A stretch of 32,000 bases of DNA from Nonlabens ponticola. Its GTDB lineage: Bacteria > Bacteroidota > Bacteroidia > Flavobacteriales > Flavobacteriaceae. The stretch covers positions 1,830,001 through 1,862,000 of the forward strand of contig NZ_CP034549.1 in assembly GCF_003966335.1 (NCBI RefSeq), written 5' to 3'. Shown here piece after piece: positions 4,020 through 32,000 of this stretch. Made by a program: the position numbers and the translations under genes. Position 1 is the first letter of the stretch. Every line of letters begins with the position of its first letter. Under the pieces are notes generated by a model that saw only the letters and a list, made by a program, of their open reading frames with translations, searched no databases and had not been told where the DNA came from.

Positions 4020-4030
4020 CTGGCCGACGC
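4007..4030. terminator. Possible bidirectional hairpin between convergent genes
   Basis: gcgtcgacc / ggccgacgc forms a 9-bp stem with one mismatch and the loop ataact. It spans the flippase stop codon (4017-4019) and lies just 3' of the minus-strand gene that ends at 4056. There is no clear U-tract. Confidence 0.3.
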
Positions 4031-4055
4031 TCTACTCACTCACGCAACTTTATAA

Positions 4056-5528: not shown

Positions 5529-5799
5529 AGTAGTAGGGTATTAATGATAAGTTTCATTACTCATCTACTTAGGTATTACAACCAGCGTGCCAAACGACGA
5601 ATTACTACCATAAATAATAGTAATACTATTAAATGTGATTATTTCAACTTGTTGAAATTCAGTAAAATACCCACTTTTGAAACTGTGCAGAAAAAGTTTT
5701 GGGCTTACGAGTACGTTGTAGTTTGAGCTTAAATTATAGAACAGTTTTCTTTGAAAAGATCAGTATACGGATACATTTGATCTCAAAACAATTCAGAGC

Positions 5800-6540
5800 C
5801 TAAAACTGAATGTAAAGTATCTCTGTATCATCCTCTAGATCGATAGGCTCATAGATACCATAACTACTATCCATTCTGAATCCTATGGAGCCAATATTTA
5901 CAAAAACTCGTGCCTCGATTTCACTACCATAGGCCACTGGATTTTCATAAGTAGCGCTTAATTCACCAAAAGTATGCCCTGGACTTATCATATCATCTGG
6001 GACGCCAGCACTGTCTATGATCTCAATGGTGGTGATGTTGCCACTCTCGTGGTAGAAATATGCCACATCAATATCTTCATACACCAATTTATATATATTA
6101 AAAGTGCCATCACCTGTTTCCAGAATATCATCTTTTAAGAAATATCCTTTATCAAGATTACTTCCAAGCAAAGCTTCAACAGATCTATTCTCATTTAAGG
6201 CAGCTAGACCTAGATATTGCAACACTCTTGTGGAATCAAAGGGCAAATAAACAAACTCTGGGTAGTCTTCTTCGTCATCTTCCAGATTTTCCAGAAGCTC
6301 AGCAGACTTTTCAACTACTTTTCTAACAGTCTCATTTAAGCTGGTATCTTGATCAGTGACATTTTTATACAGATCTGGTTTTGATCGTTTTTTATAATCT
6401 GGTTCTAAAGTCTCGCCAACCGAGTTCTCGCGACTTTCCTCTTTGTAATCTTTACAGCTTATCAAAAGAACAAATAATAATAGGGCATAGGCCGGAATGC
6501 AAATTCTCGTAATAGTGCCATGTGATTTAAGCCACTGCAT
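5800..6540 (-). CDS. Hypothetical lipoprotein
   Basis: The preferred start is the ATG at 6540 (MQWLKSHGTITRICIPAYALLLFVLLISCKD), which gives an n-region, an h-region and a lipobox Cys. The ORF track's start at 6567 would add 9 aa and lengthen the overlap with the upstream gene. I recognise no domain. It overlaps the photolyase 3' end by 14 nt on the same strand. Confidence 0.65.
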   Translation of the reverse strand: MQWLKSHGTITRICIPAYALLLFVLLISCKDYKEESRENSVGETLEPDYKKRSKPDLYKNVTDQDTSLNETVRKVVEKSAELLENLEDDEEDYPEFVYLPFDSTRVLQYLGLAALNENRSVEALLGSNLDKGYFLKDDILETGDGTFNIYKLVYEDIDVAYFYHESGNITTIEIIDSAGVPDDMISPGHTFGELSATYENPVAYGSEIEARVFVNIGSIGFRMDSSYGIYEPIDLEDDTEILYIQF

Positions 6541-7846
6541 CTTTATAGGTTTTAAGACAACGTTCACGTGCTTCCTTGTGATCCACCATCATATCGGGAT
6601 ATTTGTCCGTATCATGTTCTGGTACAAACTCTTCTATATACTCACGGTTTTTGTCAAACTTATCCTTTTGAGTAATTGGGTTGAATATCCTGAAATAAGG
6701 TGCCGCATCAACACCACTGCCAGCGGCCCATTGCCAATTACCTACATTGCTGGACATTTCATAATCTAGAAGCTTCTCGGCAAAATAGGACTCGCCCCAA
6801 CGCCAGTCGATGAGTAAATGCTTGCATAAAAAACTAGCGACAAGCATGCGCACGCGGTTGTGCATGTAGCCTGTCTGGTTGAGTTGTCGCATGCCTGCAT
6901 CCACTAGTTTGTATCCAGTCTCACCTTTTTTCCACTTTTCAAACTCATCCTCATTATTGCGCCATTCAATACGATCATATTTGGATCTAAACGCATTATC
7001 TCGCGTTTCAGGAAAGTGAAACAATATCTGCATGAAGAATTCACGCCAGATCAATTCTGATAGGAATGTCATGTTTTTTGATTGCAATCCTTTCTTGACC
7101 ATTTTACGCGGACTAGCAACACCAAACCTCAGATAAACTCCTAATCTAGTAGTTCCTTCTTGTGCTGGATAATTTCTGGTATCCTCGTAATTCTCAATCG
7201 TGGTAGGCTTCACGTCATATTCGGGAACCTCAATGCTACTTTTTTTGAAACCCATATCGGATAAGGTCAGATTAGGTAATCTTGAGTGATCAATACAATT
7301 CTCAAGTACAGAGCTGGTGTAGTAAACTCTTAAGCCATCAGCATCGCCGTGTTCTTCTTCAAAACGTTCCAGCCATTTATTTTTATAAGGTGTGTAAACC
7401 ACATAAGGATCGCCATCGTTCTTGACAACCTCACTCTTTTCAAAAATGACTTGGTCTTTAAAGGTTTTGAACTTAATGTTATGATCGTTCAAAAACTTCT
7501 CAATCTCGCCATCGCGATCCTTGGCATAGGGTTCATAATCGCGGTTAGTATAGACACTGGAAACATTGTATTCATCGACCAGATCCTTCCATATTTCGTC
7601 TGGTTTGCCGTAGTACATGGCGATGGAACTGCCAACTTCATCTTGCAGTTTGCTACGCATGCGTTGTAATTCTTCAAAGATAAAAGTCACTCGTGCATCA
7701 TCTTCTGGTAGCTCGTCAAGGATATTCTTGTCAAAAATGAAAATAGGCAGGACAGGCAAATCATCATTGAGAGCCTCATAGAAACCCACATTATCATCCA
7801 GCCTCAAATCCCTGCGGAACCAAAAGATATTTACTTTATCAGCCAT
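6527..7846 (-). CDS. phr: Deoxyribodipyrimidine photolyase (cryptochrome/photolyase family, class I-like)
   Basis: 439 aa. The N-terminus reads IFWFRRDLRLDDNVGF. The FAD-binding region reads WREFF...GYMHNRVRMLVASFLCKHLLIDWRWGESYFAEKLLDYEMSSNVGNWQWAAGSGVDAAPYFRIFNP. The DAAPYFRIFNP signature fits class I CPD/(6-4)-type enzymes rather than Cry-DASH. Confidence 0.85.
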   Translation of the reverse strand: MADKVNIFWFRRDLRLDDNVGFYEALNDDLPVLPIFIFDKNILDELPEDDARVTFIFEELQRMRSKLQDEVGSSIAMYYGKPDEIWKDLVDEYNVSSVYTNRDYEPYAKDRDGEIEKFLNDHNIKFKTFKDQVIFEKSEVVKNDGDPYVVYTPYKNKWLERFEEEHGDADGLRVYYTSSVLENCIDHSRLPNLTLSDMGFKKSSIEVPEYDVKPTTIENYEDTRNYPAQEGTTRLGVYLRFGVASPRKMVKKGLQSKNMTFLSELIWREFFMQILFHFPETRDNAFRSKYDRIEWRNNEDEFEKWKKGETGYKLVDAGMRQLNQTGYMHNRVRMLVASFLCKHLLIDWRWGESYFAEKLLDYEMSSNVGNWQWAAGSGVDAAPYFRIFNPITQKDKFDKNREYIEEFVPEHDTDKYPDMMVDHKEARERCLKTYKDAVA

Positions 7847-12941: not shown

Positions 12942-15900
12942 ATGATGAAAACTATACTTAAAATCAGTCGATTAGCATCAAGCATGTCATTCTACAGGGG
13001 TTTCAATGATTTCTCATTTCTTAAAAAAATTAAAACAAGTAAGAGGCAAACGATTCTAAGCTTTTCTGCCTTTTTCGCTTTTTTTGCTAGTCATGCTCAA
13101 TGTACTGTCCGCGATACAGGTAGTCAAGATGCTGCTGACGAAATTTATTTCAAAAGAGTTCAAATAGGCAGTATTGACAATGACCAAACTACAGCCACGC
13201 CATTTACAGTTATCGCACCATTTGGTTATCAGGACTACTCAGCACTATCCACTGATATTGCTAGAGGAACAACGTTATCTTTCAATTTTGAAACAGGTAG
13301 TGATTCTAGCAACCTACAGACAGCTAGCCGATTTTCCATCTACATTGACTGGAACAACGATGGGGATTTTGTCGACGCTGGCGAGATTATTTATAGGACA
13401 CAAACTCTTTTTGACACTTTTTTCTCTTTTGATTATGGCATTCCCAGCAACGCGTCCGTCGGATTAAAACGTGTTCGTGTAAAAACGGCATATGACTGGA
13501 ATGCGTCAAATCCATGTCTAGAATCTTGGGAATCTAGAGTTGAGGTTGAGGACTATAGTATCAATGTTGTAAAACCAGCTTTTGACACCACGGTATTGTC
13601 AAATGCGCTCGTGATTGATAACAATGATATAACACCAACAGGTTCAGACAATACAAACTTTGGTTCATTTGATTTGAACTCTGGAGAAGTACAAAATACA
13701 TTTACCATCTTCAACAATGGAGCTAATACAGTGGAATTAGCAAACAGTAAACCTAGCCGTATTCAATTAATAGGCGATGCTCAATTTAGGGTTGTGACTC
13801 AGCCACCGATCAAGACACTTCTTTCAGGACAATCAACCACGTTTGTTATAGGATATGATCCGACGGCAATTGAGACCAACAATGCCGTTGTTTCCATACA
13901 AACTTCTGACCCAATAAAAAATCCTTATACTTTTCATATTACCGGAGAAGGAAAACAAACATTTCCTGATACAGACGGAGATGGAGTTACTGATAACATT
14001 GATATAGATGATGACAATGATGGAATTGTAGATGCAACAGAACAATCCAGTTGTGTTTTTGTACCGAGTTCTACAGTAGTTGAAAGAGAATTTTTAAATG
14101 AAACCTTTGGTACAGGAACCACTACTGTTCGTATTAATGATAACAATCCTAATGTTACTACTACGTATTTCTTTGAAGATAATACAAACTCACAGGCGGC
14201 AGATGAAAATGACACAGACGCCAATCTTAACGATGGCGAGTACACCGTAGGACCATCGGCTCAAATTACAACTTGGGCACCTGCTTATTGGCATATGGGA
14301 AAAGATCACACGTCTGGTGATAGTAACGGTAGAATGGCGATTTTCAATGCAAGTATCGATCCAGGTGAATTCTATAAAACTAAGATTGATGGTGTAATTG
14401 CTAATGTTCCGGTAACTTACTCATTTTGGGTTTTGAATATAGATAGAGTCGATGCCCCAGGAATCGACACTAGATTGAGGCCACGTATTAGAGTCGAATT
14501 TACAGATGAATCAGGCAACGCAATAATTGACCAGGCAGATCCTGGTACATCCACGACACTCTTGACTGGAGATATCGCTCCTACCATTGTAACAACTGAA
14601 GAAGGCAGCTGGCAACAATTTACCAGAACTTTCACGCCTACGGTATCGACGTTTACTGTCACGTTTATCAATGACCAATTAGGTGGATTGGGTAATGATG
14701 TAGCCCTCGATGATATAGTAATTACCCAACAACTTTGTGACCTGGATCGAGATGGTGTTGCAGATGTTATTGATATAGATAGTGATAACGACGGCATCCC
14801 TAATGTGATAGAAATAGGTAGACCAGCAGGTTTGGTGGGCGTAGTTGATGCAGATAGAGATGGAACCACCTATAATTCTAACAATCTGGGTAGTGCAGAA
14901 TGGATTGACCTGAATGGCAATGGCATGCATGACGCGTATGAATCGCACACACCTGCAGATACTGATGGTGATGGTGTTCCTAACCATCTAGATCTCGATA
15001 GTGATAATGATGGATTACTAGATGTCCTTGAAAATGACGGTTTCGGAGATTTAGACGTGGATGCTGACGGTATGGGTGAAGGCACGGATGCCGATGATAA
15101 GGACTCTACCACAGATAGTGATGGCGATGGATTCTTGACTGGAAATAACTTTAGCGACTTTGATACAAATGACGCTGATAATGATATTTATGGATTTCTA
15201 GATCATGGTACAGGAACTTACAATCTTCCTATTGACACTGATGTTGACGGCATCCCTGATTTTCTAGATATTGACAGCAATGATCCACTCAATGACCTAT
15301 CAAATGGTAGCGATATAGATGATTCATACTATAGAAATCAGGATTTAAATAATGATGGTAAGGTTGACGGTACAGAAGATGTGGATAAGGATGGCGTTAT
15401 CGACACTACCAATGATTATGATACCGTACTCTTTGGCGCACCCATTAATTTATCAGACGACTATACCATTGACTTTGATGGACGCAACGATTACGTTCAA
15501 TCTAGCGCTCCATTATCAGCTGGTTTACAGGATTATACTTTAATGGCTTGGGTCATGCTAGATCCTAGTTATTCAGGTACACGCACCGTTTTCAATGATT
15601 CTGGAATAGAATTATCCGTTATGAATGATAGAAAAGTGAATATCGCGAGCAAACTTACGAGCAGTACGGTATTGCTCACCTCTAACACTAGCCTCGATCC
15701 TGGCAAGTGGCATCATATATCTGTCACATTTAGTGCTGGAAATGAGGTCAAAATTTTCTTGAATGGTTTAGAAGATGCTTCGAGAACAGCGACAAGTGGA
15801 TCCTTGAGAATAGACGTATCAGAACCTTTCACGATAGGTGCCAAGGCTTCTTCAGGTACAGTCAGCAAGTTCTTCGACGGTGCCATTGATGAGGTGCGTC

Positions 15901-17975
15901 TCTTTAATAAGGTTCTAGAATTAAAGGAATTGCGCCGTATGATCTATCAAGAAGTGCAAGACGACAGCGGCGTCATATCAGGATCTTTCTTAAGTACGCA
16001 GCTCAATGAATCTTATACGAGTATGATTGGATATTTCCCATTCTCGCAATTTACTAGATCAACCATGTTTGACAAGGCAGCCGTTGCCGTGCCATCGACA
16101 ATGTATAACATAAAAAAGATACAACCACAAACGGCACCATTACCTTATGTGACAGCACAAAATGGCGATTTGAGTCTGGATGCTACCTATACACATCCAG
16201 ATGTATGGGATGCAGATGATATCGCAAATACCGACTTTACCATTGTTCATGTAAAACATAACGTTACACAAATTCTTGACTATAACATGGTAGGCTTGAA
16301 AGTGGACGCTGGCAAGACCGTTACTGTTGCCACAGACAAACTGCTAGCAAACAGCTATCAACTTATACTAGATGGTACCATCGATCTACAGGATGATGCA
16401 CAACTCATTCAAGAAGAGGAAAGTGTATTGATCGCTGGAGCAAGCGGTGGACTTAAAAGAAGACAAGAAGGCACGGCAGATGTTCATTCCTATAACTACT
16501 GGAGCTCTCCTGTCACGACTCATAATTTAGGTGCTTCAAATGCCTCATTTAGATTAAGTCAATTAAAGGATGGCAGTGATTATGTAAACTTTACACCTGC
16601 TGAAACACCATCATTCACCATACCGGCAACCGTAAGCTCAGACTGGTTGTATACTATGTTCAATGGTACAGGTTACGCAGACTGGACCAGAGTTGATCCT
16701 GCTACCACTGATATTCGTCCAGGACTCGGTTGGACACAAAAAGGTCCCAACGCGCCTAGTGCCTTACATCAATTCACTTTTGAAGGTGTACCTAACAACG
16801 GCACGATATTAATACCTGCCATTGATGCAGATGGTGATCCACTTGTTAATGAGACCATTTCTGTTTTGGGTAATCCTTATCCATCTGCTATTGATTTACA
16901 CAAGTTTATCGATGATAATACGGTTCCTGGCAGTGAGGTAATTGATGGAACTATTTTTCTATGGCAGCAATTTAAAGGTACAGATCATATCCTTGCTAAT
17001 TATGAAGGTGGTTATGCCACGGTAACTAAACTAGGCGTTCTCAAAGCCACTCAATACGATGGCTTGGGAGCTCTTGATGCGTTAAATCTGAGTGAGCTTC
17101 TTGCCTTTGCTCCTAAAAGATACCTACCGGTGGCACAAGGATTTCTAGTGAATGTAGTAGCAGACGGTAACATCGAGTTCAACAATTCGCAACGATACTT
17201 TGCCACAGAATCTAGTGGTGGCTCCGTATTCTTTAACGCTCCAGGTAGCGGCTTGCCACAGGAAGATCGCACACCTTATCAAAACACAGAAATACCTCTC
17301 ATTAGGTTAGGTTTTGAATCGGAAAAAGGAGCAAATCGTGAATTCTATATTGGATTCAGCGAGACGTTCACAAATGGTCGTGACTATGGTTATGATGCAG
17401 TTACAAACCTTGCTGGTAGTGGATCAGACATGGTTTTGCAAGGATTTGACGAGCAGTATCTCAACATGGCAGCATTGCCTATGATTACTGGCGCAACAGC
17501 CATAGGAATTACCGTAAGAGGTGAAATAAATACCGATTACAGTATCAACGCCATACAGCTTCAAAATATTGATGAGAGCCAACCTGTTTACCTCCATGAT
17601 GCGACCTTGGGGATTTATCACGACTTGCGCTCTGGAGAGTACCTATATCAAATGGCTACGGCTGGAAAGGATGAGAATAGATTTGCCCTGGTGTTTTCGA
17701 ACTCCACATTGTCCAACGATGATATTTCAAGCCAGCAAACACTTAGTCTATTCTATAGCAACAATCGTCAGGAATTGAAACTCGTTGATCCAACTGGTTC
17801 TGCTAGCGAGGTTGTTGTTTATGACCTGTTGGGTAAGGAACTATTACGCTTTCGCGAAAGCGGAATAACTAATCTCCTCAACGGTTATTCAATGCCAATG
17901 GTAGCATCAGGTATCTACTTAGCCGAAATAATTGCTGATTCTAAGACAATTAGCACTAAATTTATCATTAACTAA
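12942..17975 (+). CDS. Giant T9SS-secreted surface protein: GEVED-like domain, thrombospondin type-3-like Ca-binding repeats, LamG/ConA-like domain, unknown C-module, T9SS C-terminal sorting domain
   Basis: 1677 aa.
- N-terminus: hydrophobic signal-like stretch ILSFSAFFAFFASHAQ. The start may instead be the Met at 12984.
- GEVED-like domain: SIYIDWNNDGDFVDAGE...RVEVEDYSINV.
- At least four D-x-D-x-DG-x-x-D-x-x-D-x-D-x-D-N-DG repeats, for example DTDGDGVTDNIDIDDDNDGI and DTDGDGVPNHLDLDSDNDGL.
- LamG signature: DFDGRNDYV...FDGAIDEVRLFNKVL.
- C-terminus: VVVYDLLGKE...GIYLAEIIADSKTISTKFIIN, typical of type A Por/T9SS sorting domains. Confidence 0.85.
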   Translation: MMKTILKISRLASSMSFYRGFNDFSFLKKIKTSKRQTILSFSAFFAFFASHAQCTVRDTGSQDAADEIYFKRVQIGSIDNDQTTATPFTVIAPFGYQDYSALSTDIARGTTLSFNFETGSDSSNLQTASRFSIYIDWNNDGDFVDAGEIIYRTQTLFDTFFSFDYGIPSNASVGLKRVRVKTAYDWNASNPCLESWESRVEVEDYSINVVKPAFDTTVLSNALVIDNNDITPTGSDNTNFGSFDLNSGEVQNTFTIFNNGANTVELANSKPSRIQLIGDAQFRVVTQPPIKTLLSGQSTTFVIGYDPTAIETNNAVVSIQTSDPIKNPYTFHITGEGKQTFPDTDGDGVTDNIDIDDDNDGIVDATEQSSCVFVPSSTVVEREFLNETFGTGTTTVRINDNNPNVTTTYFFEDNTNSQAADENDTDANLNDGEYTVGPSAQITTWAPAYWHMGKDHTSGDSNGRMAIFNASIDPGEFYKTKIDGVIANVPVTYSFWVLNIDRVDAPGIDTRLRPRIRVEFTDESGNAIIDQADPGTSTTLLTGDIAPTIVTTEEGSWQQFTRTFTPTVSTFTVTFINDQLGGLGNDVALDDIVITQQLCDLDRDGVADVIDIDSDNDGIPNVIEIGRPAGLVGVVDADRDGTTYNSNNLGSAEWIDLNGNGMHDAYESHTPADTDGDGVPNHLDLDSDNDGLLDVLENDGFGDLDVDADGMGEGTDADDKDSTTDSDGDGFLTGNNFSDFDTNDADNDIYGFLDHGTGTYNLPIDTDVDGIPDFLDIDSNDPLNDLSNGSDIDDSYYRNQDLNNDGKVDGTEDVDKDGVIDTTNDYDTVLFGAPINLSDDYTIDFDGRNDYVQSSAPLSAGLQDYTLMAWVMLDPSYSGTRTVFNDSGIELSVMNDRKVNIASKLTSSTVLLTSNTSLDPGKWHHISVTFSAGNEVKIFLNGLEDASRTATSGSLRIDVSEPFTIGAKASSGTVSKFFDGAIDEVRLFNKVLELKELRRMIYQEVQDDSGVISGSFLSTQLNESYTSMIGYFPFSQFTRSTMFDKAAVAVPSTMYNIKKIQPQTAPLPYVTAQNGDLSLDATYTHPDVWDADDIANTDFTIVHVKHNVTQILDYNMVGLKVDAGKTVTVATDKLLANSYQLILDGTIDLQDDAQLIQEEESVLIAGASGGLKRRQEGTADVHSYNYWSSPVTTHNLGASNASFRLSQLKDGSDYVNFTPAETPSFTIPATVSSDWLYTMFNGTGYADWTRVDPATTDIRPGLGWTQKGPNAPSALHQFTFEGVPNNGTILIPAIDADGDPLVNETISVLGNPYPSAIDLHKFIDDNTVPGSEVIDGTIFLWQQFKGTDHILANYEGGYATVTKLGVLKATQYDGLGALDALNLSELLAFAPKRYLPVAQGFLVNVVADGNIEFNNSQRYFATESSGGSVFFNAPGSGLPQEDRTPYQNTEIPLIRLGFESEKGANREFYIGFSETFTNGRDYGYDAVTNLAGSGSDMVLQGFDEQYLNMAALPMITGATAIGITVRGEINTDYSINAIQLQNIDESQPVYLHDATLGIYHDLRSGEYLYQMATAGKDENRFALVFSNSTLSNDDISSQQTLSLFYSNNRQELKLVDPTGSASEVVVYDLLGKELLRFRESGITNLLNGYSMPMVASGIYLAEIIADSKTISTKFIIN
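17846..17863. repeat. Iterated palindrome copy 5: aCGCTTTCGCGAAAGCGg
   Basis: Read directly. It lies inside the T9SS sorting-domain coding region of the 1677-aa gene and is read as RFRES(G). Confidence 0.95.
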
Positions 17976-18001: not shown

Positions 18002-21000
18002 ATGAAGAAAACTCTACTCTCAATTGCAGTAGCCATTACTGCAATGCAAGGAATTCAAGCACAGCAGTTTGAAGTTGATGCAGATGAATGGAAAGTCACT
18101 AAGATCACCAACTTACAATCGCCAGACGGTAATCAAATTGTAAATAATGCCAATGAAATTACTGAAGGTCCCGACGGCTGGCTATGGATTACAGAGCGTC
18201 AAGTACTAACGACTGCGCAAGGTGGTACTGACAACGGCGCGAGCGTCGTACGTATCAATCCTGATACAGGTGAGAAGGAAATAATGCTGGATTTGCGATC
18301 AAAGGTGTTTTCAAACGCTGGCCAAGATGGTCTCATGGGTATGGCTATCCATCCAAGTCTGTACACCAACAATCCTACTGATCCTTATGTATATCTAGCA
18401 TACACCTATGAAGCAAATGCAGCAACTGATATCTATACGGTAAGTGGTCTTAGAGAATTGCGTATCGAGCGCTACACATATCGTCCAGGAAGCGATGATC
18501 TAGATCCCGATTCTGGCTTTACCTTGATAGATAAGCTTGCCGGTAGTAATGATCACAGTAGCGCGCGCATGAAGATAGGGCCAGACGGTATGCTGTATTT
18601 TACTAGTGGTGATTTGGGTTACAATCAATTTAAGAATAAGTGCGTGGTCATACAATCACAATCACTGCCTACACAACAAGAAGTCAATAATAAGGAGTGG
18701 AGAGATTATAAGGGAAAAATCCTGCGCATGACACTTACCGGTGGCATTCCAGCAGATAATCCTACTTTCCTACCGCACGATGTACTTAGCGATGATGGAG
18801 TTACAGTAGATAATACGAACTATACATTTTCTGATCAAAGCGCCAGCGGCACTCGAGTGCGTAGTCATATATATAGTTATGGACATAGAAATGCTCAAGG
18901 AATCATTTTTGCTGCTGATGGTACGCTCTATAGCAGTGAGCACGGTGATCGGGTAGATGATGAAGTAAACATTATTACTGCTGGTGGTAATTACGGCTGG
19001 CCGTTCATTGTTGGTGATCGTGATGGTATTGGGTTCACGCATTGTAAAAAACAATCGCTGTGCGCCACGAATTCTACTTATGCGGGAAATGGTAATAATG
19101 ATTGTTCTTTTGACGGTGATAGTGCAGATGTTTACCCTGAATTGGATCAAGCACGGCCTAGTGATCTTGTAGATCCTATAGCAAATTATAATTCTAATAA
19201 TGGCGAGAATCCACCAGGAGGTTTTAGAACTTGGCCTACCATTGCACCATCAAGCATTGATATTTATGAAGGCAATGGTGATATACCATGGAATAAAAGC
19301 ATCTTGATTCCATCACTCAAATCAGGAACAATTTATCGTTATGAGCTTAATGCAGCTGGTGATGGTATCGTTGGTGGTGGTACTACAAATGGTTTGATTT
19401 CATTTCACGCGACGGTAGATAGATATCGGGATATCGCTATGAGCGCTGACGGCAAGACTATCTACGCCATAACGGATAGCAAGGGTCAAACCAGTGGTCC
19501 ATCAGGAACAGATGGTTTGCCAATTGAAAATCCTGGTGCTATTTTCAAATTTGAATATATCAAGAAACCCAGTATTTATATAAGTGAGGTAACTAATCCT
19601 AGTGATGATAGAGAAGGTGTTTTTGTTGAGATCTATAACTACGGTGATCAGGACGTGGACCTCGCTGAAACTGGCGTCGTTCTAGGTCGTCAACGCAGCG
19701 GTGATAATACTAATCAAGAAGAGCTAGCACTTACAGGCACGGTTGCGCCTGGACAGTATTTCGTAGTGGGTCGTGATGGCTTCAATGCCATTTATGGTCA
19801 AGCACCAGATTTGGTAGCTAGTGACGATTTGTTAGGTGGTGATGGCGACGATCCCTATGCGTTAGTGTATCAAAACAGCTTTAATTCTTTAGCCTATGTA
19901 GCCCTTGATTCCTATGGTAATTTAGATCAAGATGGAGCAGGTCAGGATTGGGACTTTAGCAATAATAGAAGGATTAGTCGCAAGCGATCCCAGAATTCTA
20001 GAGCAGCCGTATTTGATCTGGCACAATGGAATAGGAGTGACACTGGTAGTTTGACAACTGATGCTACACCATTTGAACCAGATCCATTGACATTTATATA
20101 TGCCAGCAACGCGATTACACCGCAATCTCCTGTGAACTTAACGACTCGATTTGATAATTTAATTGTTCAGGATGGCTCATATCGTTTGCCGCAAAATCTA
20201 ACATTTAAAAATGTTACGGTAGACAATGGTGCGACTCTAGATCTGGACGATTCAATAATTGACGTGGCTGGTAATCTAACGATCAATGGCGCGATCAATG
20301 ACAGTAACGGCACCATGCGATTGACTGTCGATGGTGCGCACAGCATCAATGGTTCTGCAGCTTCTATTCATAATTTAGAAACGAATGCAGCTGTTACTAT
20401 AAATGCCGATGTGAGTGTTACCAATATTTTGACTGCCGCATCTGGCCAGATTGATATTACCTCGGGCAACAAGATTATTCTTAAAAGTACTGCTGCTGGA
20501 ACGGCCTATGTAGATCAGGTTCCTAGCGGTGTTACTATCAATGGAGATGTTCAGGTAGAACGATTTATACCGGGTAAACGGGCTTTTAGATTTATTAGCT
20601 CTCCAGTGACCACGACATCCAGTATCTATGAGAACTGGCAGGAAAGCGGGTCAGTGGTCTCAGGTCAAGGAACGCATATAACAGGTGACGCAAGCGGTGC
20701 AAATGGCTTTGACGCAACAGCCACTGGTAATCCTAGTTTATATAGTTTTGACAATACAGCCAGTAACTGGACCGCAGTTACAAGTACAAATTCTGCAACT
20801 GATGTGCTTGTCGCGGGAAAACCGTATAGATTGTTTGTACGCGGTGATAGAACTGTAGATCTGAGTAATAATGAGGCAACGGCGACTGCAACGACTTTGA
20901 GAATGACGGGAGAACTTGTCACACAGCAAGTAAACCAAACTAACTTGAGTCAAAATGCTGGCGACTTTAATATGATAGGTAATCCATACCAGGCTCCAGT

Positions 21001-21961
21001 TGATTTATCTCAGGTTATTGCCGCTTCCACCAATGTGAGTCAGACTGATATTTATATGTGGGATCCTACTATCAACGAGCGTGGTGCTTATGTAAATCTA
21101 TTATTGGATACAAATACAAATACCGTTGATGGATCAGCAATTAATAAATTCTTACAGCCTAATACAGCATTCTTTATAACGACCAGCAATGATGGTAGTG
21201 CTAGTATCGCTTTCGCGGAAGCTAACAAAAATACTGCTCAAGAGACACTAGATGTTTACAGCATACCATCGATGGTACGAGTATCGCTATATCCTGAAAA
21301 TGAAATAGATGGAGAAACCGCACTTGACGGAACCATTGCTATTTTCAAGGAAGACTATAGCGCGCTAGCTACAAATGAAGATGCTGCCAAGTTTATGAAT
21401 CTAGACGAGAGTATTTACACTATTGTCAACGATACAAAGCTGAGTGTAAATCGTCTTCCTAGCATAGAGAACAATGACAAGATCGAGATAGGATTAAATC
21501 ATCTGCGCAGTGATCGCTACAGATTATCTATAGATGCCACACGGTATGATAAAGATCTATTCCTATATGATGCTGTGACTGATAATTATACGCCATTATC
21601 CAAATCGGAAAAAAGCTGGTATGCTTTTGACAAAAATGAAGATGATAACGACGCAGTAAATCGCTTTACCATTGTCTCAACTCAAAGCACGCTTTCTAAT
21701 AGTGATTTTGAGTCACTCGACTTAACAGTGTATCCTAACCCAACTTCAGGCAAATTGTTTATTAGCGCTACAAGCCTATCCGGATTGACCACCATAAGTC
21801 TCACTAATTTGTTAGGTCAAGAAGTTTATAGCCATGAGATTACTGCCGTTGCAAACCAATCTATAGAAGTCCATTTACCAGCTAATATCAACACAGGTAA
21901 TTTCATTCTTAAAGTGGTAAATGATGGACAAATAATGACAGAGAAAATCATTATCCAATAA
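18002..21961 (+). CDS. Giant T9SS-secreted protein: PQQ-dependent sugar (glucose/sorbosone) dehydrogenase-like beta-propeller + lamin-tail domain (LTD) + unknown C-module + T9SS sorting domain
   Basis: 1319 aa with signal peptide MKKTLLSIAVAITAMQGIQAQ.
- Propeller motifs: GLMGMAIHP, GHRNAQGIIF, SEHGDRVDDEVNIITAGGNYGWP.
- LTD-like: IYISEVTNPSDDREGVFVEIYNYGDQDVDL.
- C-terminus: TVYPNPTSGKLFISA...NFILKVVNDGQIMTEKIIIQ, a T9SS CTD.
It starts 26 nt after the previous gene. Confidence 0.85.
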   Translation: MKKTLLSIAVAITAMQGIQAQQFEVDADEWKVTKITNLQSPDGNQIVNNANEITEGPDGWLWITERQVLTTAQGGTDNGASVVRINPDTGEKEIMLDLRSKVFSNAGQDGLMGMAIHPSLYTNNPTDPYVYLAYTYEANAATDIYTVSGLRELRIERYTYRPGSDDLDPDSGFTLIDKLAGSNDHSSARMKIGPDGMLYFTSGDLGYNQFKNKCVVIQSQSLPTQQEVNNKEWRDYKGKILRMTLTGGIPADNPTFLPHDVLSDDGVTVDNTNYTFSDQSASGTRVRSHIYSYGHRNAQGIIFAADGTLYSSEHGDRVDDEVNIITAGGNYGWPFIVGDRDGIGFTHCKKQSLCATNSTYAGNGNNDCSFDGDSADVYPELDQARPSDLVDPIANYNSNNGENPPGGFRTWPTIAPSSIDIYEGNGDIPWNKSILIPSLKSGTIYRYELNAAGDGIVGGGTTNGLISFHATVDRYRDIAMSADGKTIYAITDSKGQTSGPSGTDGLPIENPGAIFKFEYIKKPSIYISEVTNPSDDREGVFVEIYNYGDQDVDLAETGVVLGRQRSGDNTNQEELALTGTVAPGQYFVVGRDGFNAIYGQAPDLVASDDLLGGDGDDPYALVYQNSFNSLAYVALDSYGNLDQDGAGQDWDFSNNRRISRKRSQNSRAAVFDLAQWNRSDTGSLTTDATPFEPDPLTFIYASNAITPQSPVNLTTRFDNLIVQDGSYRLPQNLTFKNVTVDNGATLDLDDSIIDVAGNLTINGAINDSNGTMRLTVDGAHSINGSAASIHNLETNAAVTINADVSVTNILTAASGQIDITSGNKIILKSTAAGTAYVDQVPSGVTINGDVQVERFIPGKRAFRFISSPVTTTSSIYENWQESGSVVSGQGTHITGDASGANGFDATATGNPSLYSFDNTASNWTAVTSTNSATDVLVAGKPYRLFVRGDRTVDLSNNEATATATTLRMTGELVTQQVNQTNLSQNAGDFNMIGNPYQAPVDLSQVIAASTNVSQTDIYMWDPTINERGAYVNLLLDTNTNTVDGSAINKFLQPNTAFFITTSNDGSASIAFAEANKNTAQETLDVYSIPSMVRVSLYPENEIDGETALDGTIAIFKEDYSALATNEDAAKFMNLDESIYTIVNDTKLSVNRLPSIENNDKIEIGLNHLRSDRYRLSIDATRYDKDLFLYDAVTDNYTPLSKSEKSWYAFDKNEDDNDAVNRFTIVSTQSTLSNSDFESLDLTVYPNPTSGKLFISATSLSGLTTISLTNLLGQEVYSHEITAVANQSIEVHLPANINTGNFILKVVNDGQIMTEKIIIQ
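21208..21222. repeat. Iterated palindrome copy 6, degenerate: CGCTTTCGCGgAAGC (one A>G change at 21218)
   Basis: Read directly. It lies inside the 1319-aa gene and is read as AFAEA. Confidence 0.8.
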
Positions 21962-26837: not shown

Positions 26838-29228
26838 ATGGCAAAGAAAAAGCACGATTATAAAAACTTTGATGCAGTACTGAGTTTTGATAAGCTCATC
26901 AATCAGTACAGAAATCGTGTGGAGAATTCCCAAAACAGATTTAAGAAACTGTATTTCTCTGCATTGTTACAAGCCATTGAAAAAGATGATTTTTTATCTG
27001 TTGAAATTGAGGCTCATAATCTTCATGAATATGCAGACTCAATTCATCTTGTCTTGGCAGAGCTTTTTCCCGAATCACTCACTAATAATGAGATTAAGGC
27101 GGCTACCATACCTTTTTCCACAACGCTTTTTAATTGCACCAGACGATTAGAGAATTTGTTGAAAGATGCTGGTGAAGATTTTGATTTTGATTTCATGGAG
27201 AACTCGCAGTTCAATCAATTTCGTCTAGCATGCGGTATTATTCTCAATAAAATTTATAATCAAAAGCTTGATATAGGTACATTGATCCATTGCGAGATTC
27301 CTGACAAGAACGGTAATATTAGGACTTACAGGATTACTTTCAATGCTGACTTCGTAGAGGTAATTCCTAAGAATAATAAACCATCATTAGACAAAAAAGC
27401 TATTGATGGATTATTGCGTGCACCGGACGATGAGAATTTATGGAGATCTAGTTTCCCACAAGATAGCTATAGGTTTGAAGGATTTGGTATCATCTCATTG
27501 ACTGATGTCACCGTTGATGCCGCAATATCAGACCTTAAGACGATATTGCTCAACAATCCTGAATCTCAAAGCACCCAGCAAGAACAGATCGAGAAGATTT
27601 TTCAAAAGATGTTCAATCTTGACAAGATACATGTAGGATTCACGTCTTTTGATCAATATGACAAAAGTTTTGAGCGTATGCTTTACAGCGACTCTCATAG
27701 CTACATGTTGGGAACCAGTCATGAGAAAAATTGTGAGAATGCCTTATGTTCTGATAGTTACAACGCTATTATAAAAAAGAAAAAGCCACTTATTATTCCT
27801 GATGTGGTTGTGTATGCAGATGAACAAAAAAATAAGTTTCTAACAAACAACTTGCTTGAGGCTAATCTTAAAAGCGTCATTCTATATCCTGTAACTAAAA
27901 ACCGCAAACTTTTAGGTGTGCTTGAGATAGGTAGTGAGATAGCCTATGCACTTAATAGCTTTAACGCTACACGTATAGACAGTGTTATAGAATACATCAA
28001 GTCAGCCCTTGTACGTGCTGAGGATGAATATGAAAATAGAATAAAAGCTATCATTCAAACGGAATGTACGTCGATACACCCTAGCGTACAATGGAAGTTT
28101 GAAAAAGAGGCTAGAAGAATACTTAAGTTGAGATCCGAAGGTCAAGATGAGACCTTTAAAGATATTCGTTTTCAAGATGTATATCCACTGTATGGTCAAA
28201 TAGATGTAGTAGGTAGTAGTGATGCGAGAAACAACGCTATTAAAGAGGATTTAAGTGATCAATTAGTGATTGTATGTGAGATTTTTGAAATGGCTAAGAA
28301 GTTTGAAGATCTACCTATATATGATCAAATTTCTTTTAGGGTTTTTGAATATCGTAAAGAATTGACTGACGGCAAGATTGACGCAAATGCAGAACGTAGC
28401 ATCATAAAACTGCTGACTGAGGAGATCAATCCTATAATGGATCATTTGAAAACCTTATCGCCAGATTTAAAGAACAAGGTCGTTCATTATCAAAAAGAGC
28501 TGGATCCTGGTAGTGGTGTTATTTACAAGAAACGCAATAATTACGACAATACCGTGCAAACCATCAATGAAGCATTGTCAAGATATGTTGATAAGCGTCA
28601 AGTTGCTGCGCAGAAAATTTACACACACTTCTTTGAACGATTCAAGACCGATGGTGTTGAGCATAATATTTATGTAGGTAAGAGCATTCAATCTAATGAA
28701 GAATTCAATCCGGTATATCTATATAACTTGAGGTTGTGGCAATTGCAAACTATGATTGAGATGGAGGATAAATTCTATCGCATTCAAGAAAACCTTCCGT
28801 CACAACTAGACGCAGCGTCTATGATATTGGTATTTGACAATACTTTGAGCATCCGCTATCGCATAGATGAGAAACGATTTGATGTGGATGGAACCTACAA
28901 CGCTCGCTACGAGGTAATAAAAAAGCGTATTGACAAAGCGCACATTAAAGGAACGGAAGAACGCGTTACCCAAAAAGGTACCATATCAATTATATATACC
29001 AACAAAGAAAATGAACGCGAATACATGCGTTATGTAAATTTCTTACAGCACAAGGATTATTTAGGGGACAAAATAGAAAGACTTGAACTTGAAGATGTAC
29101 AAGGAGTTATAGGTCTCAAAGCGCTGAGAATAAATATACTCTACGGATTCAAAGCCAGTGAAGATCGAATGACCTATGCAGATCTTATCCAGGAATTACA
29201 CCTGCAACAGCCTCATAATCATAAGTAG
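26838..29228 (+). CDS. Large cytoplasmic GAF-domain protein of unknown function
   Basis: 796 aa with no signal peptide or TM helix. A central GAF-like block reads KPLIIPDVVVYADEQ...KSVILYPVTKNRKLLGVLEIGSE. I recognise no kinase, cyclase, HTH or other output motif in the roughly 330 aa before it or the roughly 390 aa after it. Confidence 0.6.
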   Translation: MAKKKHDYKNFDAVLSFDKLINQYRNRVENSQNRFKKLYFSALLQAIEKDDFLSVEIEAHNLHEYADSIHLVLAELFPESLTNNEIKAATIPFSTTLFNCTRRLENLLKDAGEDFDFDFMENSQFNQFRLACGIILNKIYNQKLDIGTLIHCEIPDKNGNIRTYRITFNADFVEVIPKNNKPSLDKKAIDGLLRAPDDENLWRSSFPQDSYRFEGFGIISLTDVTVDAAISDLKTILLNNPESQSTQQEQIEKIFQKMFNLDKIHVGFTSFDQYDKSFERMLYSDSHSYMLGTSHEKNCENALCSDSYNAIIKKKKPLIIPDVVVYADEQKNKFLTNNLLEANLKSVILYPVTKNRKLLGVLEIGSEIAYALNSFNATRIDSVIEYIKSALVRAEDEYENRIKAIIQTECTSIHPSVQWKFEKEARRILKLRSEGQDETFKDIRFQDVYPLYGQIDVVGSSDARNNAIKEDLSDQLVIVCEIFEMAKKFEDLPIYDQISFRVFEYRKELTDGKIDANAERSIIKLLTEEINPIMDHLKTLSPDLKNKVVHYQKELDPGSGVIYKKRNNYDNTVQTINEALSRYVDKRQVAAQKIYTHFFERFKTDGVEHNIYVGKSIQSNEEFNPVYLYNLRLWQLQTMIEMEDKFYRIQENLPSQLDAASMILVFDNTLSIRYRIDEKRFDVDGTYNARYEVIKKRIDKAHIKGTEERVTQKGTISIIYTNKENEREYMRYVNFLQHKDYLGDKIERLELEDVQGVIGLKALRINILYGFKASEDRMTYADLIQELHLQQPHNHK

Positions 29229-30387
29229 TAAAGGCAATTACAAAAGCAAGTACTGATGATATGATACCTATCATAAAGATAGTGTATGTCCATCGCAGTA
29301 ACGTGTACTTTCTATTAAGTACCACACCCAGCAACCATAAATCTTTCAACAAGGATTGATAGACTTCTTCCTTATCGTCAAGTAATCCCATCAATGCTTT
29401 TTCATATCTCTTGAAAGGTACCTTGTGAAAATTTCCAAAGAATAATAAATTAACTTCTCGCTTCTCCACTTGCTCATCAGTAAACTCGCCACTCGTTACA
29501 TTAGGTCTTGTACTCAAGATGGAAAGGATAATACTAGCTACGGAAAATAAGATTAATATTAATGTAGGATACAACAAGTGTCTGTTACTTACCGCATCAA
29601 GTTTAGGAATGATGTTGGCTAGTGCCAGCGATATAATAATCGCATTTACTGATAATAGAATATTGGCCTTTGTATCAGCAATATCACTTAATTTGATGTG
29701 ATTACGCAATGTGGTTCTAAAAAGCGTTTGTATGGCTCGCTCTGGACTTTGATTTTTCAAATCAACCTTTAGTTGCTCTTTTTTAATCTTTTGCTTGCTC
29801 TTCTTACGTTTTTTGAACAGTTTCATCAAGTTCTCATTCTTGAGAACATTCCAATTCTTAACCGCATAATCGCAATAGTACCGGTGCTTTTCAGTAAATA
29901 CTTGAATGTTTTCCTTGCGCCATTCTTTACGTGAGTAATCCTTACCCCTTAACTTTAATTCCTGTTTGAGTAGTTCGCTGGTCTCAAAATAGTAGTCCTT
30001 GGCAAAGTGTGACGCATCTGCATCACGCAGCATTTCTTCAAGCTTGCCATCAGGTTGATTATTAAATTTTGTAGCACGTATCAATTGCTGTACTAATTGA
30101 ATAGTATCTGGCTCGACATTTTGAGATTCTAGGAAGGATTTTGCGATCTTGGCGCTTTCTTCTTCATGTCCATCAGCGCCTTTGATATAGCCAGTATCGT
30201 GCAGATATGCTGCCAGCAATAGAGCCTTTTCCTCTTTAACATCTAATTGAGAGTTGTCAATGATTTCCTGTGTACTTTTAACAACTCTTTTAGTATGTGT
30301 GTAATTGTGATAAACGTAGATTTCATCAAGCTCATCCTTAAAAAGATGTAGCACATAATCATCAGTCGCTTTAAATATATCGGCCAT
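29185..30387 (-). CDS. HD-domain phosphohydrolase fused to a C-terminal 3-TM module resembling DUF5706/PycTM (Pycsar effector-type membrane domain)
   Basis: 400 aa. HD motifs: YHNYTHTKRV, LLAAYLHDTGY, LRDADASHF. A basic linker (KKRKKSKQKIKK) follows. Then comes RAIQTLFRTTLRNHIKLSDIADTKANILLSVNAIIISLALANI plus two further TM helices. The match to PycTM/DUF5706 is from memory of that family's pattern, not from a search. Confidence 0.6.
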   Translation of the reverse strand: MADIFKATDDYVLHLFKDELDEIYVYHNYTHTKRVVKSTQEIIDNSQLDVKEEKALLLAAYLHDTGYIKGADGHEEESAKIAKSFLESQNVEPDTIQLVQQLIRATKFNNQPDGKLEEMLRDADASHFAKDYYFETSELLKQELKLRGKDYSRKEWRKENIQVFTEKHRYYCDYAVKNWNVLKNENLMKLFKKRKKSKQKIKKEQLKVDLKNQSPERAIQTLFRTTLRNHIKLSDIADTKANILLSVNAIIISLALANIIPKLDAVSNRHLLYPTLILILFSVASIILSILSTRPNVTSGEFTDEQVEKREVNLLFFGNFHKVPFKRYEKALMGLLDDKEEVYQSLLKDLWLLGVVLNRKYTLLRWTYTIFMIGIISSVLAFVIAFTTYDYEAVAGVIPG

Positions 30388-30415: not shown

Positions 30416-32000
30416 ATGAATTCTTATTACATGAATAAAAATCCTCTTATTTTTTTGATAGCCGTATTTATCATTTCTAGCTGTGCTAGCTACAAAGCTC
30501 AATATAAAGAAGGTGAAGAAAGTTTTAAGCCGTCGATCAATGACGATGATATCGTCAAATCATTTTATCTCATAGGCGATGTAGGCAAATCTCCCATAGG
30601 TGGTAAGAGTGATGGACTGCTCGCACTCGAGGCATACATGAAAGGAAAGGATACTAAAAATGACCACCTAATTTTTTTGGGTGACAATATTTACCCTACG
30701 GGTATGCCCAAAAAGGATACTGAATTTAGACCCATTGCCGAAAATCATCTAGATGCTCAGATAGCAGTTGCTAAACAATTTGAAGGGAAAACCATTTTCA
30801 TTCCAGGTAATCATGATTATTACGACGAGAACCTAGACAATGTAGAGCGAGAAAAAAAATATATAGAAGAAGCTCTAGATAACAAAGACGTCTGGAGTCC
30901 CAAAGTAGGCTGTCCCATTGATAGCCGTGAGATTTCAAAAGACATTCAATTGATTATCGTTGATAGTCAATGGTATCTGGCCAAATGGGATGAAATTCCT
31001 ACTATCAATGACAACTGTGATCAAATTAAAACTAGAGAGCAGTTTTTCCTTGAAATAGAAAGTGAACTCAAGAAAAACCAGGGTAAGACTATACTCATCA
31101 CAACGCACCACCCAATATTTACTAATGGTATCCACGGCGGTCAATATGCTGCCATTAAGCACCTTTATCCTACACAAAACAACATACCTATTCCTGTATT
31201 GGGATCACTTACCAGCCTTATACGTACTAGTGGTGGCGTGAGTGCACAAGACAAGCAAAACAAGCGATACCAGAGCTATGCAGATCGTATGACATCGCTT
31301 ATTGTAGCATCAGGTGCACCACGTGTGATGCTAGCCAGCGGTCATGAACATACCTTGCAGTATATTGTAAATGAAGGAGTTAGACAAATAGTATCTGGAT
31401 CTGGAGCAAAGAAAAGCTATGTAGCTCTTAGTGACGATGGGCTATTTGCATACGGTGGAAAGGGCTTTGCAAAAATGGATGTTCTCAAGGATGGCAGTTC
31501 TACCGTTACCTATTACGGTTTTGAGAACGGTACCTACAAAAGCCTTTATAGTAAAAATGCCATTGATGCGCCACCAGTGTTTGATATGAGTAGCTTGCCT
31601 GATAGTATTCCCGCTTTCGCGAAAGCTAACATATACAACGATGATCGCACCGATAAGTCTAAGTTTTATGAAGGTTTCTGGGGTGAGAAGTATCGTGAAC
31701 TGTACAATACTGATATTAATGCACATGTGGCATTGCTTGATACATTAAAAGGAGGCTTGAGTGTGGTTAGACCAGGTGGTGGACACCAGACACGTAGCTT
31801 GAGACTCGTCGATAAAGATGGTAAAGAATATAATTTAAGGGCTCTCAAAAAAAGTGCCGTACAATTTTTACAAACCACGGTATTCAAAGACAAAAACGTT
31901 GCCGATGGTTTTGATGACACCACTGCCGAGGATTTACTTTTTGATTTTTACACAGCAGCACATCCATATGGAGCACTGGTCATTCCCACATTAGCTGATG
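30416..32000 (+). CDS. Calcineurin-like metallophosphoesterase lipoprotein, N-terminal about 528 aa (continues past the window); absent from the supplied ORF track
   Basis: I translated by hand in the frame starting at 30416 (or at the second ATG, 30431) and checked it line by line from about 30780 to base 32000; no stop was seen anywhere in the frame. It begins MNSYYMNKNPLIFLIAVFIISSCAS (lipobox). Phosphoesterase motifs: YLIGDVG, LIFLGDNIYP, FIPGNHDYY, ITTHHP, ASGHEHTLQY. Confidence 0.85.
   Translation, partial: MNSYYMNKNPLIFLIAVFIISSCASYKAQYKEGEESFKPSINDDDIVKSFYLIGDVGKSPIGGKSDGLLALEAYMKGKDTKNDHLIFLGDNIYPTGMPKKDTEFRPIAENHLDAQIAVAKQFEGKTIFIPGNHDYYDENLDNVEREKKYIEEALDNKDVWSPKVGCPIDSREISKDIQLIIVDSQWYLAKWDEIPTINDNCDQIKTREQFFLEIESELKKNQGKTILITTHHPIFTNGIHGGQYAAIKHLYPTQNNIPIPVLGSLTSLIRTSGGVSAQDKQNKRYQSYADRMTSLIVASGAPRVMLASGHEHTLQYIVNEGVRQIVSGSGAKKSYVALSDDGLFAYGGKGFAKMDVLKDGSSTVTYYGFENGTYKSLYSKNAIDAPPVFDMSSLPDSIPAFAKANIYNDDRTDKSKFYEGFWGEKYRELYNTDINAHVALLDTLKGGLSVVRPGGGHQTRSLRLVDKDGKEYNLRALKKSAVQFLQTTVFKDKNVADGFDDTTAEDLLFDFYTAAHPYGALVIPTLAD
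31612..31626. repeat. Iterated palindrome copy 8: CGCTTTCGCGAAAGC (14-nt core 31613-31626)
   Basis: Read directly. It lies inside the metallophosphoesterase CDS and is read as AFAKA. Confidence 0.95.

Follow-up and report, generated by a model that had tools for sequence, protein, structure and literature searches.

A convergent gene pair in Nonlabens ponticola

We analysed a stretch of 32,000 nucleotides (nt) from Nonlabens ponticola (Flavobacteriaceae; NCBI RefSeq assembly GCF_003966335.1, contig NZ_CP034549.1, positions 1,830,001 to 1,862,000; this whole stretch is called the window below, and coordinates count from its first letter), with the focus on two convergent genes near its right end. 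The open reading frame (ORF) listing of the window places the first at 26838-29228 on the plus strand (796 amino acids (aa), ATG start); its product, called GAF796 here, is a cytosolic sensor-cyclase candidate in which hydropathy analysis found no transmembrane-like window. The second, at 29185-30387 on the minus strand, encodes a 400-aa protein that combines an HD phosphohydrolase domain with a PycTM membrane module (HD-PycTM). Their 3' ends share the 44 nt from 29185 to 29228 (both strands), as noticed in an initial annotation made from the sequence alone, which had also proposed that the two genes form a nucleotide-signal sensing and response pair. We found that the C-terminal half of GAF796 is predicted to fold like a class III nucleotidyl cyclase, and that the two genes stay adjacent throughout Flavobacteriaceae. 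In the overlap itself no intrinsic terminator was detected by a promoter/terminator scan, whose signals were not above chance, and an Rfam scan of the window returned no RNA family.

The 400-aa protein matched the Pfam families PF01966 (HD, E 5.5e-8) and PF18967 (PycTM, E 1.4e-32, residues 268-374), the PADLOC PycTM models (E 6e-18) and models of the "2TM effector" of CBASS (cyclic-oligonucleotide-based anti-phage signalling systems), in agreement with its initial description as a phosphohydrolase joined to a membrane module like that of Pycsar (pyrimidine cyclase system for anti-phage resistance) effectors. The HD domain (residues ~8-190; 29818-30366, minus strand) has an intact metal-site signature of the H...HD...D type, in which H27, H31, H63-D64, H74, D122/D124 and H127 are invariant across HD-PycTM homologues, including an HD domain fused to a GAF796 homologue in Flavobacterium difficile (see below); among solved structures it comes closest to 2pq7, an uncharacterised HD hydrolase (E 0.016). 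The PycTM module (residues ~216-392; 29212-29742, minus strand) contains hydrophobic helices at ~241-263, ~269-295 and ~366-390, i.e., three predicted transmembrane helices, with the HD domain on the cytosolic side. Homologues of HD-PycTM number over 7700 and carry the NCBI names "Pycsar system effector family protein", DUF5706 or HD-domain protein.

GAF796 belongs to a large family: an exhaustive profile search collected 1780 clusters (50% identity) at E<=1e-3 and 820 at E<=1e-30. Members are typically ~790 aa long (nearly all of the 150 best clusters fall within ~760-830 aa, with few shorter or longer), occur in Nonlabens, Salegentibacter, Christiangramia, Zunongwangia, Gillisia, Tenacibaculum and many other genera, and are named "GAF domain-containing protein" or "hypothetical protein" in the databases. 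Beyond Flavobacteriaceae, the family reaches Chondrinema (Cytophagales, 36% identity) and, on a plasmid, Haliovirga abyssi (Fusobacteriota, 32%), the latter suggesting horizontal transfer out of Bacteroidota. The literature searched contained no description of the GAF796 family, of DUF5706/PycTM fused to HD, or of the pair, and neither it nor the annotations assigned the family a housekeeping role unrelated to signalling, an outcome that the initial annotation had named as fatal to its proposal. As to individual members, a metagenome-assembled genome (locus L087) encodes tandem GAF796 paralogues of 824 and 831 aa (2446-4920 and 5001-7496), and on the Haliovirga abyssi plasmid pHIC the gene adjoins two Rpn-family transposase-like genes and lies directly upstream of a dihydrofolate reductase (DHFR) gene. 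Many members also carry the precomputed label PF27174 "YeeD", a Pfam entry of recent date, often as a weak or faint match.

A full-length AlphaFold2 (AF2) model of GAF796 (predicted local distance difference test (pLDDT) 78) begins with an alpha/beta domain at the N-terminus, continues through a GAF fold and a long helix, and ends in a C-terminal half of helical and alpha/beta structure. The best Foldseek hit of this model was 6fht, a phytochrome-linked cyclase, and its N-terminal ~400 residues aligned to the PAS-GAF modules of bacteriophytochromes. The first part of the sensor half is thus modelled as a PAS-like alpha/beta, sensor-like domain (residues ~10-240; 26865-27557, plus strand). A complete GAF fold follows at residues ~244-400 (27567-28037, plus strand) and matches the GAF structure of fRMsr (3ksf, TM-score 0.72). 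In GAF796 itself the Pfam GAF match (PF01590, residues 305-366, E 0.017) reached 16.1 bits and so missed the cut-off of 22.4, which the matches in the homologues P0129, P0160 and P0182 exceed; membership is supported via homologues and fold. The GAF block that the initial annotation had placed at about residues 320-400 is therefore a real GAF domain, of which that span covers only the C-terminal half.

Downstream of the GAF domain lies a predicted signalling helix with a helix-break-Pro-helix element (28038-28136, plus strand; helices 386-409 and 415-433 in a model of residues 385-796), which holds the invariant residues T411, H414, W419 and F421. Its sequence "T-x-I-H-P-S-V-x-W" may be the counterpart of the cyclase transducer element, as it resembles the "L-L-x-x-x-L-P-x-x-I-A" found ahead of the cyclase domain in an alignment of real cyclases.

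Fold and conserved motifs of the C-terminal half

Full-length Foldseek hits were mostly to PAS-GAF modules, which masked the C-terminal domain, and residues 385-796 were therefore modelled separately by AF2 from a 120-sequence alignment. This model was of high confidence (pLDDT 95.1, predicted TM-score (pTM) 0.90), and its top 50 Foldseek hits in the PDB were class III nucleotidyl cyclases without exception: they included Cya2 (E 9e-5), CyaB, CyaC, Rv1900c (TM-score 0.55), Rv1625c, soluble guanylyl cyclase, AC9 and soluble AC, as well as the Anabaena uridylate cyclase 8jsz (E 0.015), and neither a GGDEF nor a polymerase palm domain was among them. The alignments spanned ~205 columns, essentially the whole cyclase domain, with probabilities of up to 1.00. 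At the sequence level, PDB searches, whether by single sequence or by family profile, recovered the GAF core only and no cyclase (a match to a calcium-channel beta subunit was rejected as a chance match). Thus the earlier statement that GAF796 has no recognisable output domain holds for sequence searches (Pfam, NCBIfam, PADLOC and PDB) and fails at the level of the fold, where the structure check that the initial annotation had suggested, for a cryptic cyclase or nucleotidyltransferase, returned a class III cyclase-like fold in the C-terminal flank. As a model-based assignment, the cyclase-like fold is well supported.

Conservation is concentrated in the same half of the protein. In an alignment of 162 family members, down to 28% identity, the residues conserved in at least 97% of the sequences lie almost all in the C-terminal half: T411, H414, W419, F421, D456, S460, R464, D471, R566, Q592, D605, G606, G614, W634, Q635, E678, F681, D682, G685, K695, K696, R697, K700, R709, Y729, G759 and R764. 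The GAF region is poorly conserved by comparison, and a C-terminal half rich in invariant residues attached to a variable GAF domain is the pattern that an enzyme active site on a fast-evolving sensor would leave.

In the model the cyclase-homology-like domain is split into two parts. Part 1 (residues 443-489; 28164-28304, plus strand) consists of strand beta1, ending in "QID456VVGSS", and helix alpha1. Part 2 (residues 595-770; 28620-29147, plus strand), delimited by conservation, AF2 and Foldseek, contains the hairpin "FK603-T-D605-G-VEHNIYVG", the strand "SIR673YR675" and the segment "F681-D682-V-D-G-T-Y-N688-A-R690-Y-E", followed by a helix with K695-K696-R697. The invariant residues gather at the end of beta1, in the beta2/beta3 hairpin and at the N-terminus of the helix after "FDVDG". 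Separating the two parts, after alpha1 and before beta2, the model has a helical bundle of ~105 aa (residues 490-594; 28305-28619, plus strand) where canonical cyclase domains have ~35 residues. This insertion carries the invariant R566 and Q592, and it may contribute to the active site or to a dimer interface rather than being passive.

The order of the conserved residues appears to match the metal, substrate and transition-state motifs of class III cyclases. Against a reference alignment of Rv1625c (sequence checked against PDB 4p2m) and 14 plasmid-borne cyclases, "QID456VVGSS" would correspond to "F-A-D-I-V-G-F-T" with the first metal Asp, the hairpin "FK603-T-D605-G" to "E-K-I-K-T-I-G-D" with the specificity Lys and the second metal Asp, and the strand "SIR673YR675" to "R-V-G-I" with the phosphate Arg. 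By motif order and secondary structure, the next segment would map to "Y-D-V-W-G-D-x-V-N-x-A-S-R-M-E", which holds the specificity Asp and the transition-state Asn and Arg: "FD682VDGTYN688AR690YE" is similar to "YDVWGDAVNVASRME", with N688 modelled at the helix cap. The best hhalign alignment, which is not significant, gave the predicted register over 76 colinear columns, with IDVVGSS on ADIVGFT and FKTDGVEHNIYVG on IKVSGDSYMVVSG of Rv1625c; in this non-significant register the invariant D456 aligns with the first Asp of "ADIVGFT".

Conservation of the pair across genomes

Across 80 loci from species-representative genomes (~20 Flavobacteriaceae genera, 41-72% identity to the GAF796 query), tblastn placed HD-PycTM directly downstream of and convergent to GAF796 in 77, which is 77 of the 78 evaluable loci. 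Two of the three exceptions are contig ends; the other is Zunongwangia pacifica, where a phosphate-selective porin O/P gene occupies the HD-PycTM position (L042:8419-9567). The two genes end a median of 14.5 nt apart (range -34 to 457; aligned ends, 78 loci), and the tight convergent abutment of the pair is conserved. The pair thus passed the synteny test by which the initial annotation could have failed, remaining together down to 41% identity.

This adjacency outlasts changes around and within the pair. The upstream genes (TlpA-like, rhomboid, LpxL-like, GlmM and AcpH) are syntenic in many genera and lost in many others, and at ~10 loci both flanks differ and the pair is still adjacent. One lineage (locus L102) has HD-PycTM upstream of GAF796 on the same strand. 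Flavobacterium difficile and its relatives encode a 968-aa fusion (a cluster of 11 members) in which the GAF796 body continues at its C-terminus into an HD domain 39% identical to that of the window (E 3e-37). The PycTM module is there a separate 204-aa gene 2 nt downstream of the fusion, and the point of fusion and splitting lies exactly at the HD|PycTM linker. An assembly artefact is unlikely, because five contigs carry the identical fused protein (the four shown represent four different samples), and the same cluster also contains the protein of the F. difficile genome. On the F. difficile-type contigs (L081:16080-18862) polyphosphate kinase PPK1 and PAP2 phosphatase genes follow the cluster; together with the porin O/P gene of Z. 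pacifica, they make phosphate-related genes a recurrent observation at the locus.

A second line of evidence comes from Persicobacteraceae (Cytophagales), where the orthologous block includes a metallophosphoesterase gene (33% identity, E 6e-75) together with HD-PycTM (38.5%). After this block, Fulvitalea axinellae encodes on the same strand a canonical class III cyclase (PF00211; 26.5 bits, cut-off 21.9), and in Persicobacter sp. JZB09 a homologue of that cyclase is convergent to HD-PycTM. The Fulvitalea-type cyclase has no sequence similarity to GAF796. HD-PycTM thus repeatedly partners a nucleotide cyclase, with a canonical one beside it in Persicobacteraceae and GAF796, its predicted cyclase-like counterpart, in Flavobacteriaceae. 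Synteny, fusion, the modelled fold and this cyclase neighbour together support the original idea of a nucleotide-signal pair.

In the window, the 5' part of the metallophosphoesterase gene (30416-32000, plus strand; PF00149), which encodes an Omp85-like lipoprotein, is divergent from HD-PycTM with 28 nt between the start codons. Full-length homologues are large lipoproteins of ~1220 aa with an Omp85-like C-terminal domain (e.g., L106:886-4566). The gene adjoins HD-PycTM in 70 of 83 loci and is lost in 13, and its product may be an envelope-spanning third component. A gene for a ~300-aa beta-propeller-like protein travels with it (24% identity, E 4e-6).

The other genes around the pair encode a photolyase, YebC, LysM and type IX secretion system (T9SS)-cargo proteins, AcpH, GlmM, a lipid-A acyltransferase, a rhomboid protease and a TlpA-like oxidoreductase. 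Domain scans of the window proteins found no integrase, transposase, or other mobile-element or defence gene, nor any canonical cyclase among the other genes, the latter as the initial annotation had stated. Across loci the identities of GAF796 and HD-PycTM track taxonomy. With its housekeeping neighbours and identities that follow taxonomy, the pair therefore bears the marks of a core module that Flavobacteriaceae inherit vertically and not those of a defence island. Further from the pair, the window encodes two very large, putatively secreted proteins on the plus strand: one of 1677 aa with GEVED and Laminin_G_3 domains (12942-17975), and one of 1319 aa in which a glucose/sorbosone dehydrogenase-like domain is combined with a T9SS C-terminal sorting domain (18002-21961).

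Among distant family members, the GAF796 and HD-PycTM genes of Chondrinema lie on different replicons. In another distant lineage, a GAF796 homologue that has no HD-PycTM neighbour is preceded, 69 nt upstream and co-directionally, by a gene for a patatin-like phospholipase (L103:58-945; PF01734, E 1e-24). Patatins are a known effector type of cyclic-nucleotide (CBASS) defence systems, and by analogy this one could be an alternative partner of the GAF796 homologue. Small co-directional ORFs downstream of distant homologues (L103 and L105) were rejected as PycTM candidates; they are not PycTM and are unrelated to each other.

A candidate housekeeping signalling module

Taken as a whole, the conserved pair suggests an undescribed core-genome unit of cyclic-nucleotide signalling. 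On the models, a nucleotide-cyclase domain of highly divergent sequence is most likely hidden in GAF796, and we consider it probable that this sensor-cyclase and the membrane-bound HD hydrolase/effector make up a housekeeping module of Pycsar-like design. In such a module, the PAS-like and GAF domains would sense a ligand or state and gate the C-terminal cyclase through the signalling helix; the divergent class III cyclase domain, with its ~105-aa bundle inside, would make a cyclic or otherwise modified nucleotide; the cytosolic HD domain would bind and probably hydrolyse this product, serving as both receptor and timer; and the three-helix PycTM module would turn nucleotide occupancy into a change at the inner membrane, e.g., in ion or solute permeability or in conformation. 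The metallophosphoesterase of the outer membrane may act in concert with HD-PycTM. Because the pair is a vertically inherited core module, housekeeping signalling (of envelope or nutrient state) is its most likely role, over strain-specific phage defence.

The architecture comes closest to that of GAF- or PAS-regulated class III cyclases (cyanobacterial CyaB1/CyaB2, 6fht and the Rv1625c type), with which GAF796 shares PAS-like and GAF sensors, a signalling helix and a C-terminal cyclase-homology fold. It also appears to keep their motif order, in which beta1 ends in an Asp and G-S/T-S/T, then a hairpin with K-T-x-G and a helix cap with F/Y-D-V-x-G...N...R come next. It differs from them by the ~105-aa insertion between alpha1 and beta2, and its GAF domain, as read from the sequence, lacks the NKFDE cyclic nucleoside monophosphate (cNMP)-binding motif.

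Several observations weigh against a sensor-cyclase module: i) scans of GAF796 with Pfam, NCBIfam and PADLOC found no output domain (PF00211 unmatched, 0 PADLOC families), and it has no detectable sequence homology to class III cyclases; ii) a profile from which the insertion had been spliced out found nothing in PDB or Pfam, and hhalign against the 15-sequence cyclase profile reached only E 0.13-0.16 with a probability below 1% (local, global and low-maximum-accuracy (MAC) modes), so that a significant sequence or profile match is lacking; iii) the Foldseek TM-scores are moderate (0.45-0.57, target-normalised) at a root-mean-square deviation of 5-7 Å; iv) the canonical second metal Asp aligns with V607, which the invariant D605 and E608 flank, D605 being two positions off the canonical "GD"; v) the Asn/Arg spacing is N-x-R against the canonical N-x-x-x-R; vi) K603, at the position of the specificity Lys, varies across the wider family; vii) HD-PycTM has no cNMP-binding domain in Pfam scans, its N-terminal domain being HD; viii) GAF796 members at 28-36% identity outside Flavobacteriaceae have no HD-PycTM neighbour; and ix) the two genes of the window are convergent and hence not co-transcribed. 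The predicted homology to cyclases therefore rests on fold and motif order, not on sequence statistics. On the model, the C-terminal domain is nevertheless likely to be catalytically competent.

Such observations could also be read as a cyclase-like fold that is no cyclase, i.e., a pseudo-enzyme, a nucleotide-binding regulator or a protein of other phosphoryl or nucleotidyl chemistry, with the whole block serving phosphate, polyphosphate or envelope nucleotide metabolism. The undetectable sequence relationship and the non-canonical motif spacing would fit, as would the phosphate-related neighbours: the metallophosphoesterase at most loci, PPK1/PAP2 in F. difficile and the porin in Z. pacifica. 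We nonetheless judge it rather unlikely, since the acidic and basic invariants occupy the end of beta1, the hairpin and the N-terminus of the helix, as in active cyclases, a bona fide PF00211 cyclase takes the equivalent position in Persicobacteraceae, and the top structural matches are to cyclases only. Another account, that the two genes are functionally unrelated and adjacent merely through inherited gene order in a slowly rearranging region, could draw on their convergence without co-transcription, on the synteny of the upstream TlpA-like to AcpH genes in many genera and on the distant members without an HD-PycTM neighbour. It is already disfavoured and seems to us very improbable: the pair persists where both flanks have changed, its orientation varies with adjacency kept, one lineage has joined HD to GAF796 and keeps PycTM as a separate gene directly downstream, and a canonical cyclase neighbours HD-PycTM in another order.

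The remaining alternative is a true anti-phage abortive-infection system of the Pycsar type that became fixed in the chromosome, in which the PAS and GAF domains would sense infection, a cyclic (pyrimidine) nucleotide would be made, PycTM would kill or arrest the cell, and HD would be an off-switch against accidental firing. The pair does share the two-gene logic of Pycsar (PycC cyclase plus PycTM or PycTIR effector), with a cyclase-fold generator beside a PycTM protein, and it is co-directional or fused in some lineages. PycTM is the Pycsar effector module and matches the CBASS 2TM models, NCBI names the protein after the Pycsar effector family, the GAF796 fold also matches the Pycsar-type uridylate cyclase 8jsz, one distant homologue adjoins a patatin phospholipase, and the metallophosphoesterase at a distant locus weakly matches an anti-phage phosphoesterase model. 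However, Pycsar effectors carry a cNMP-binding domain where HD-PycTM has its HD phosphohydrolase; the PADLOC PycC models do not recognise GAF796; the genes are convergent in 78 loci, with no operon here; and, in place of the patchy distribution of mobile defence islands, the pair is found at an unchanged chromosomal position in virtually all genera sampled, its identities tracking taxonomy, amid housekeeping neighbours and without an integrase, transposase or other defence gene in the window. Such a setting, in the core genome and among housekeeping genes, speaks against a mobile defence system of the typical Pycsar kind, and we consider a defensive role unlikely.

Coupled synthases and HD hydrolases are known from the membrane HD phosphodiesterase PgpH (c-di-AMP), HD-GYP proteins (c-di-GMP) and the RelA/SpoT synthetase-HD proteins. 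With these, the GAF796/HD-PycTM pair would share a generator coupled to a membrane-anchored HD-family hydrolase, and one lineage fuses generator and HD. It differs in that its HD is the generic PF01966, not HD-GYP or 7TMR-HD, and in that PycTM, an effector module, takes the place of a sensor 7TM in the membrane. As for cyclases that escape annotation, the cryptic cyclase-like DUF2652 proteins of Bacteroidetes, Actinobacteria and Proteobacteria were found by remote-homology or fold methods (Ramakrishnan et al. 2016, PMC4886424) and are a precedent for class III cyclase relatives in Bacteroidetes missed by standard annotation. GAF796 is itself not DUF2652, which is a single-domain protein of ~250 aa without GAF (PMC4886424) and which had no match in the Pfam scans of GAF796.

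New here would be a domain like that of class III cyclases that bears a large insertion and lacks a sequence signature, a partner in which HD replaces the cNMP-binding domain of a Pycsar-type membrane module, and the core-genome setting of both. In its widest form, which we put forward tentatively and with less than even confidence, GAF796 would represent a deeply divergent and so far unrecognised class III cyclase clade, ~800 clusters (50% identity) marked by the bundle insertion, that generates a nucleotide second messenger in Flavobacteriaceae and other Bacteroidota and that, with HD-PycTM and possibly the metallophosphoesterase, forms the housekeeping counterpart or the evolutionary source of the Pycsar/CBASS membrane-effector systems.

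If this is true, a large orphan family (~1800 clusters at 50% identity) so far labelled as GAF-domain or hypothetical proteins would gain a biochemical role, and thousands of "Pycsar system effector family protein" entries with no recognised cyclase nearby would gain their missing signal generator. Immune-type transmembrane effectors would then work in normal physiology, with HD as a built-in receptor and timer, and a Pycsar/CBASS-type membrane effector would be a core inherited component, which bears on whether abortive infection arose from housekeeping signalling or the reverse. Flavobacteriia matter in marine carbon cycling and in fish disease, and the pair offers a testable entry to cyclic-nucleotide signalling in this group.

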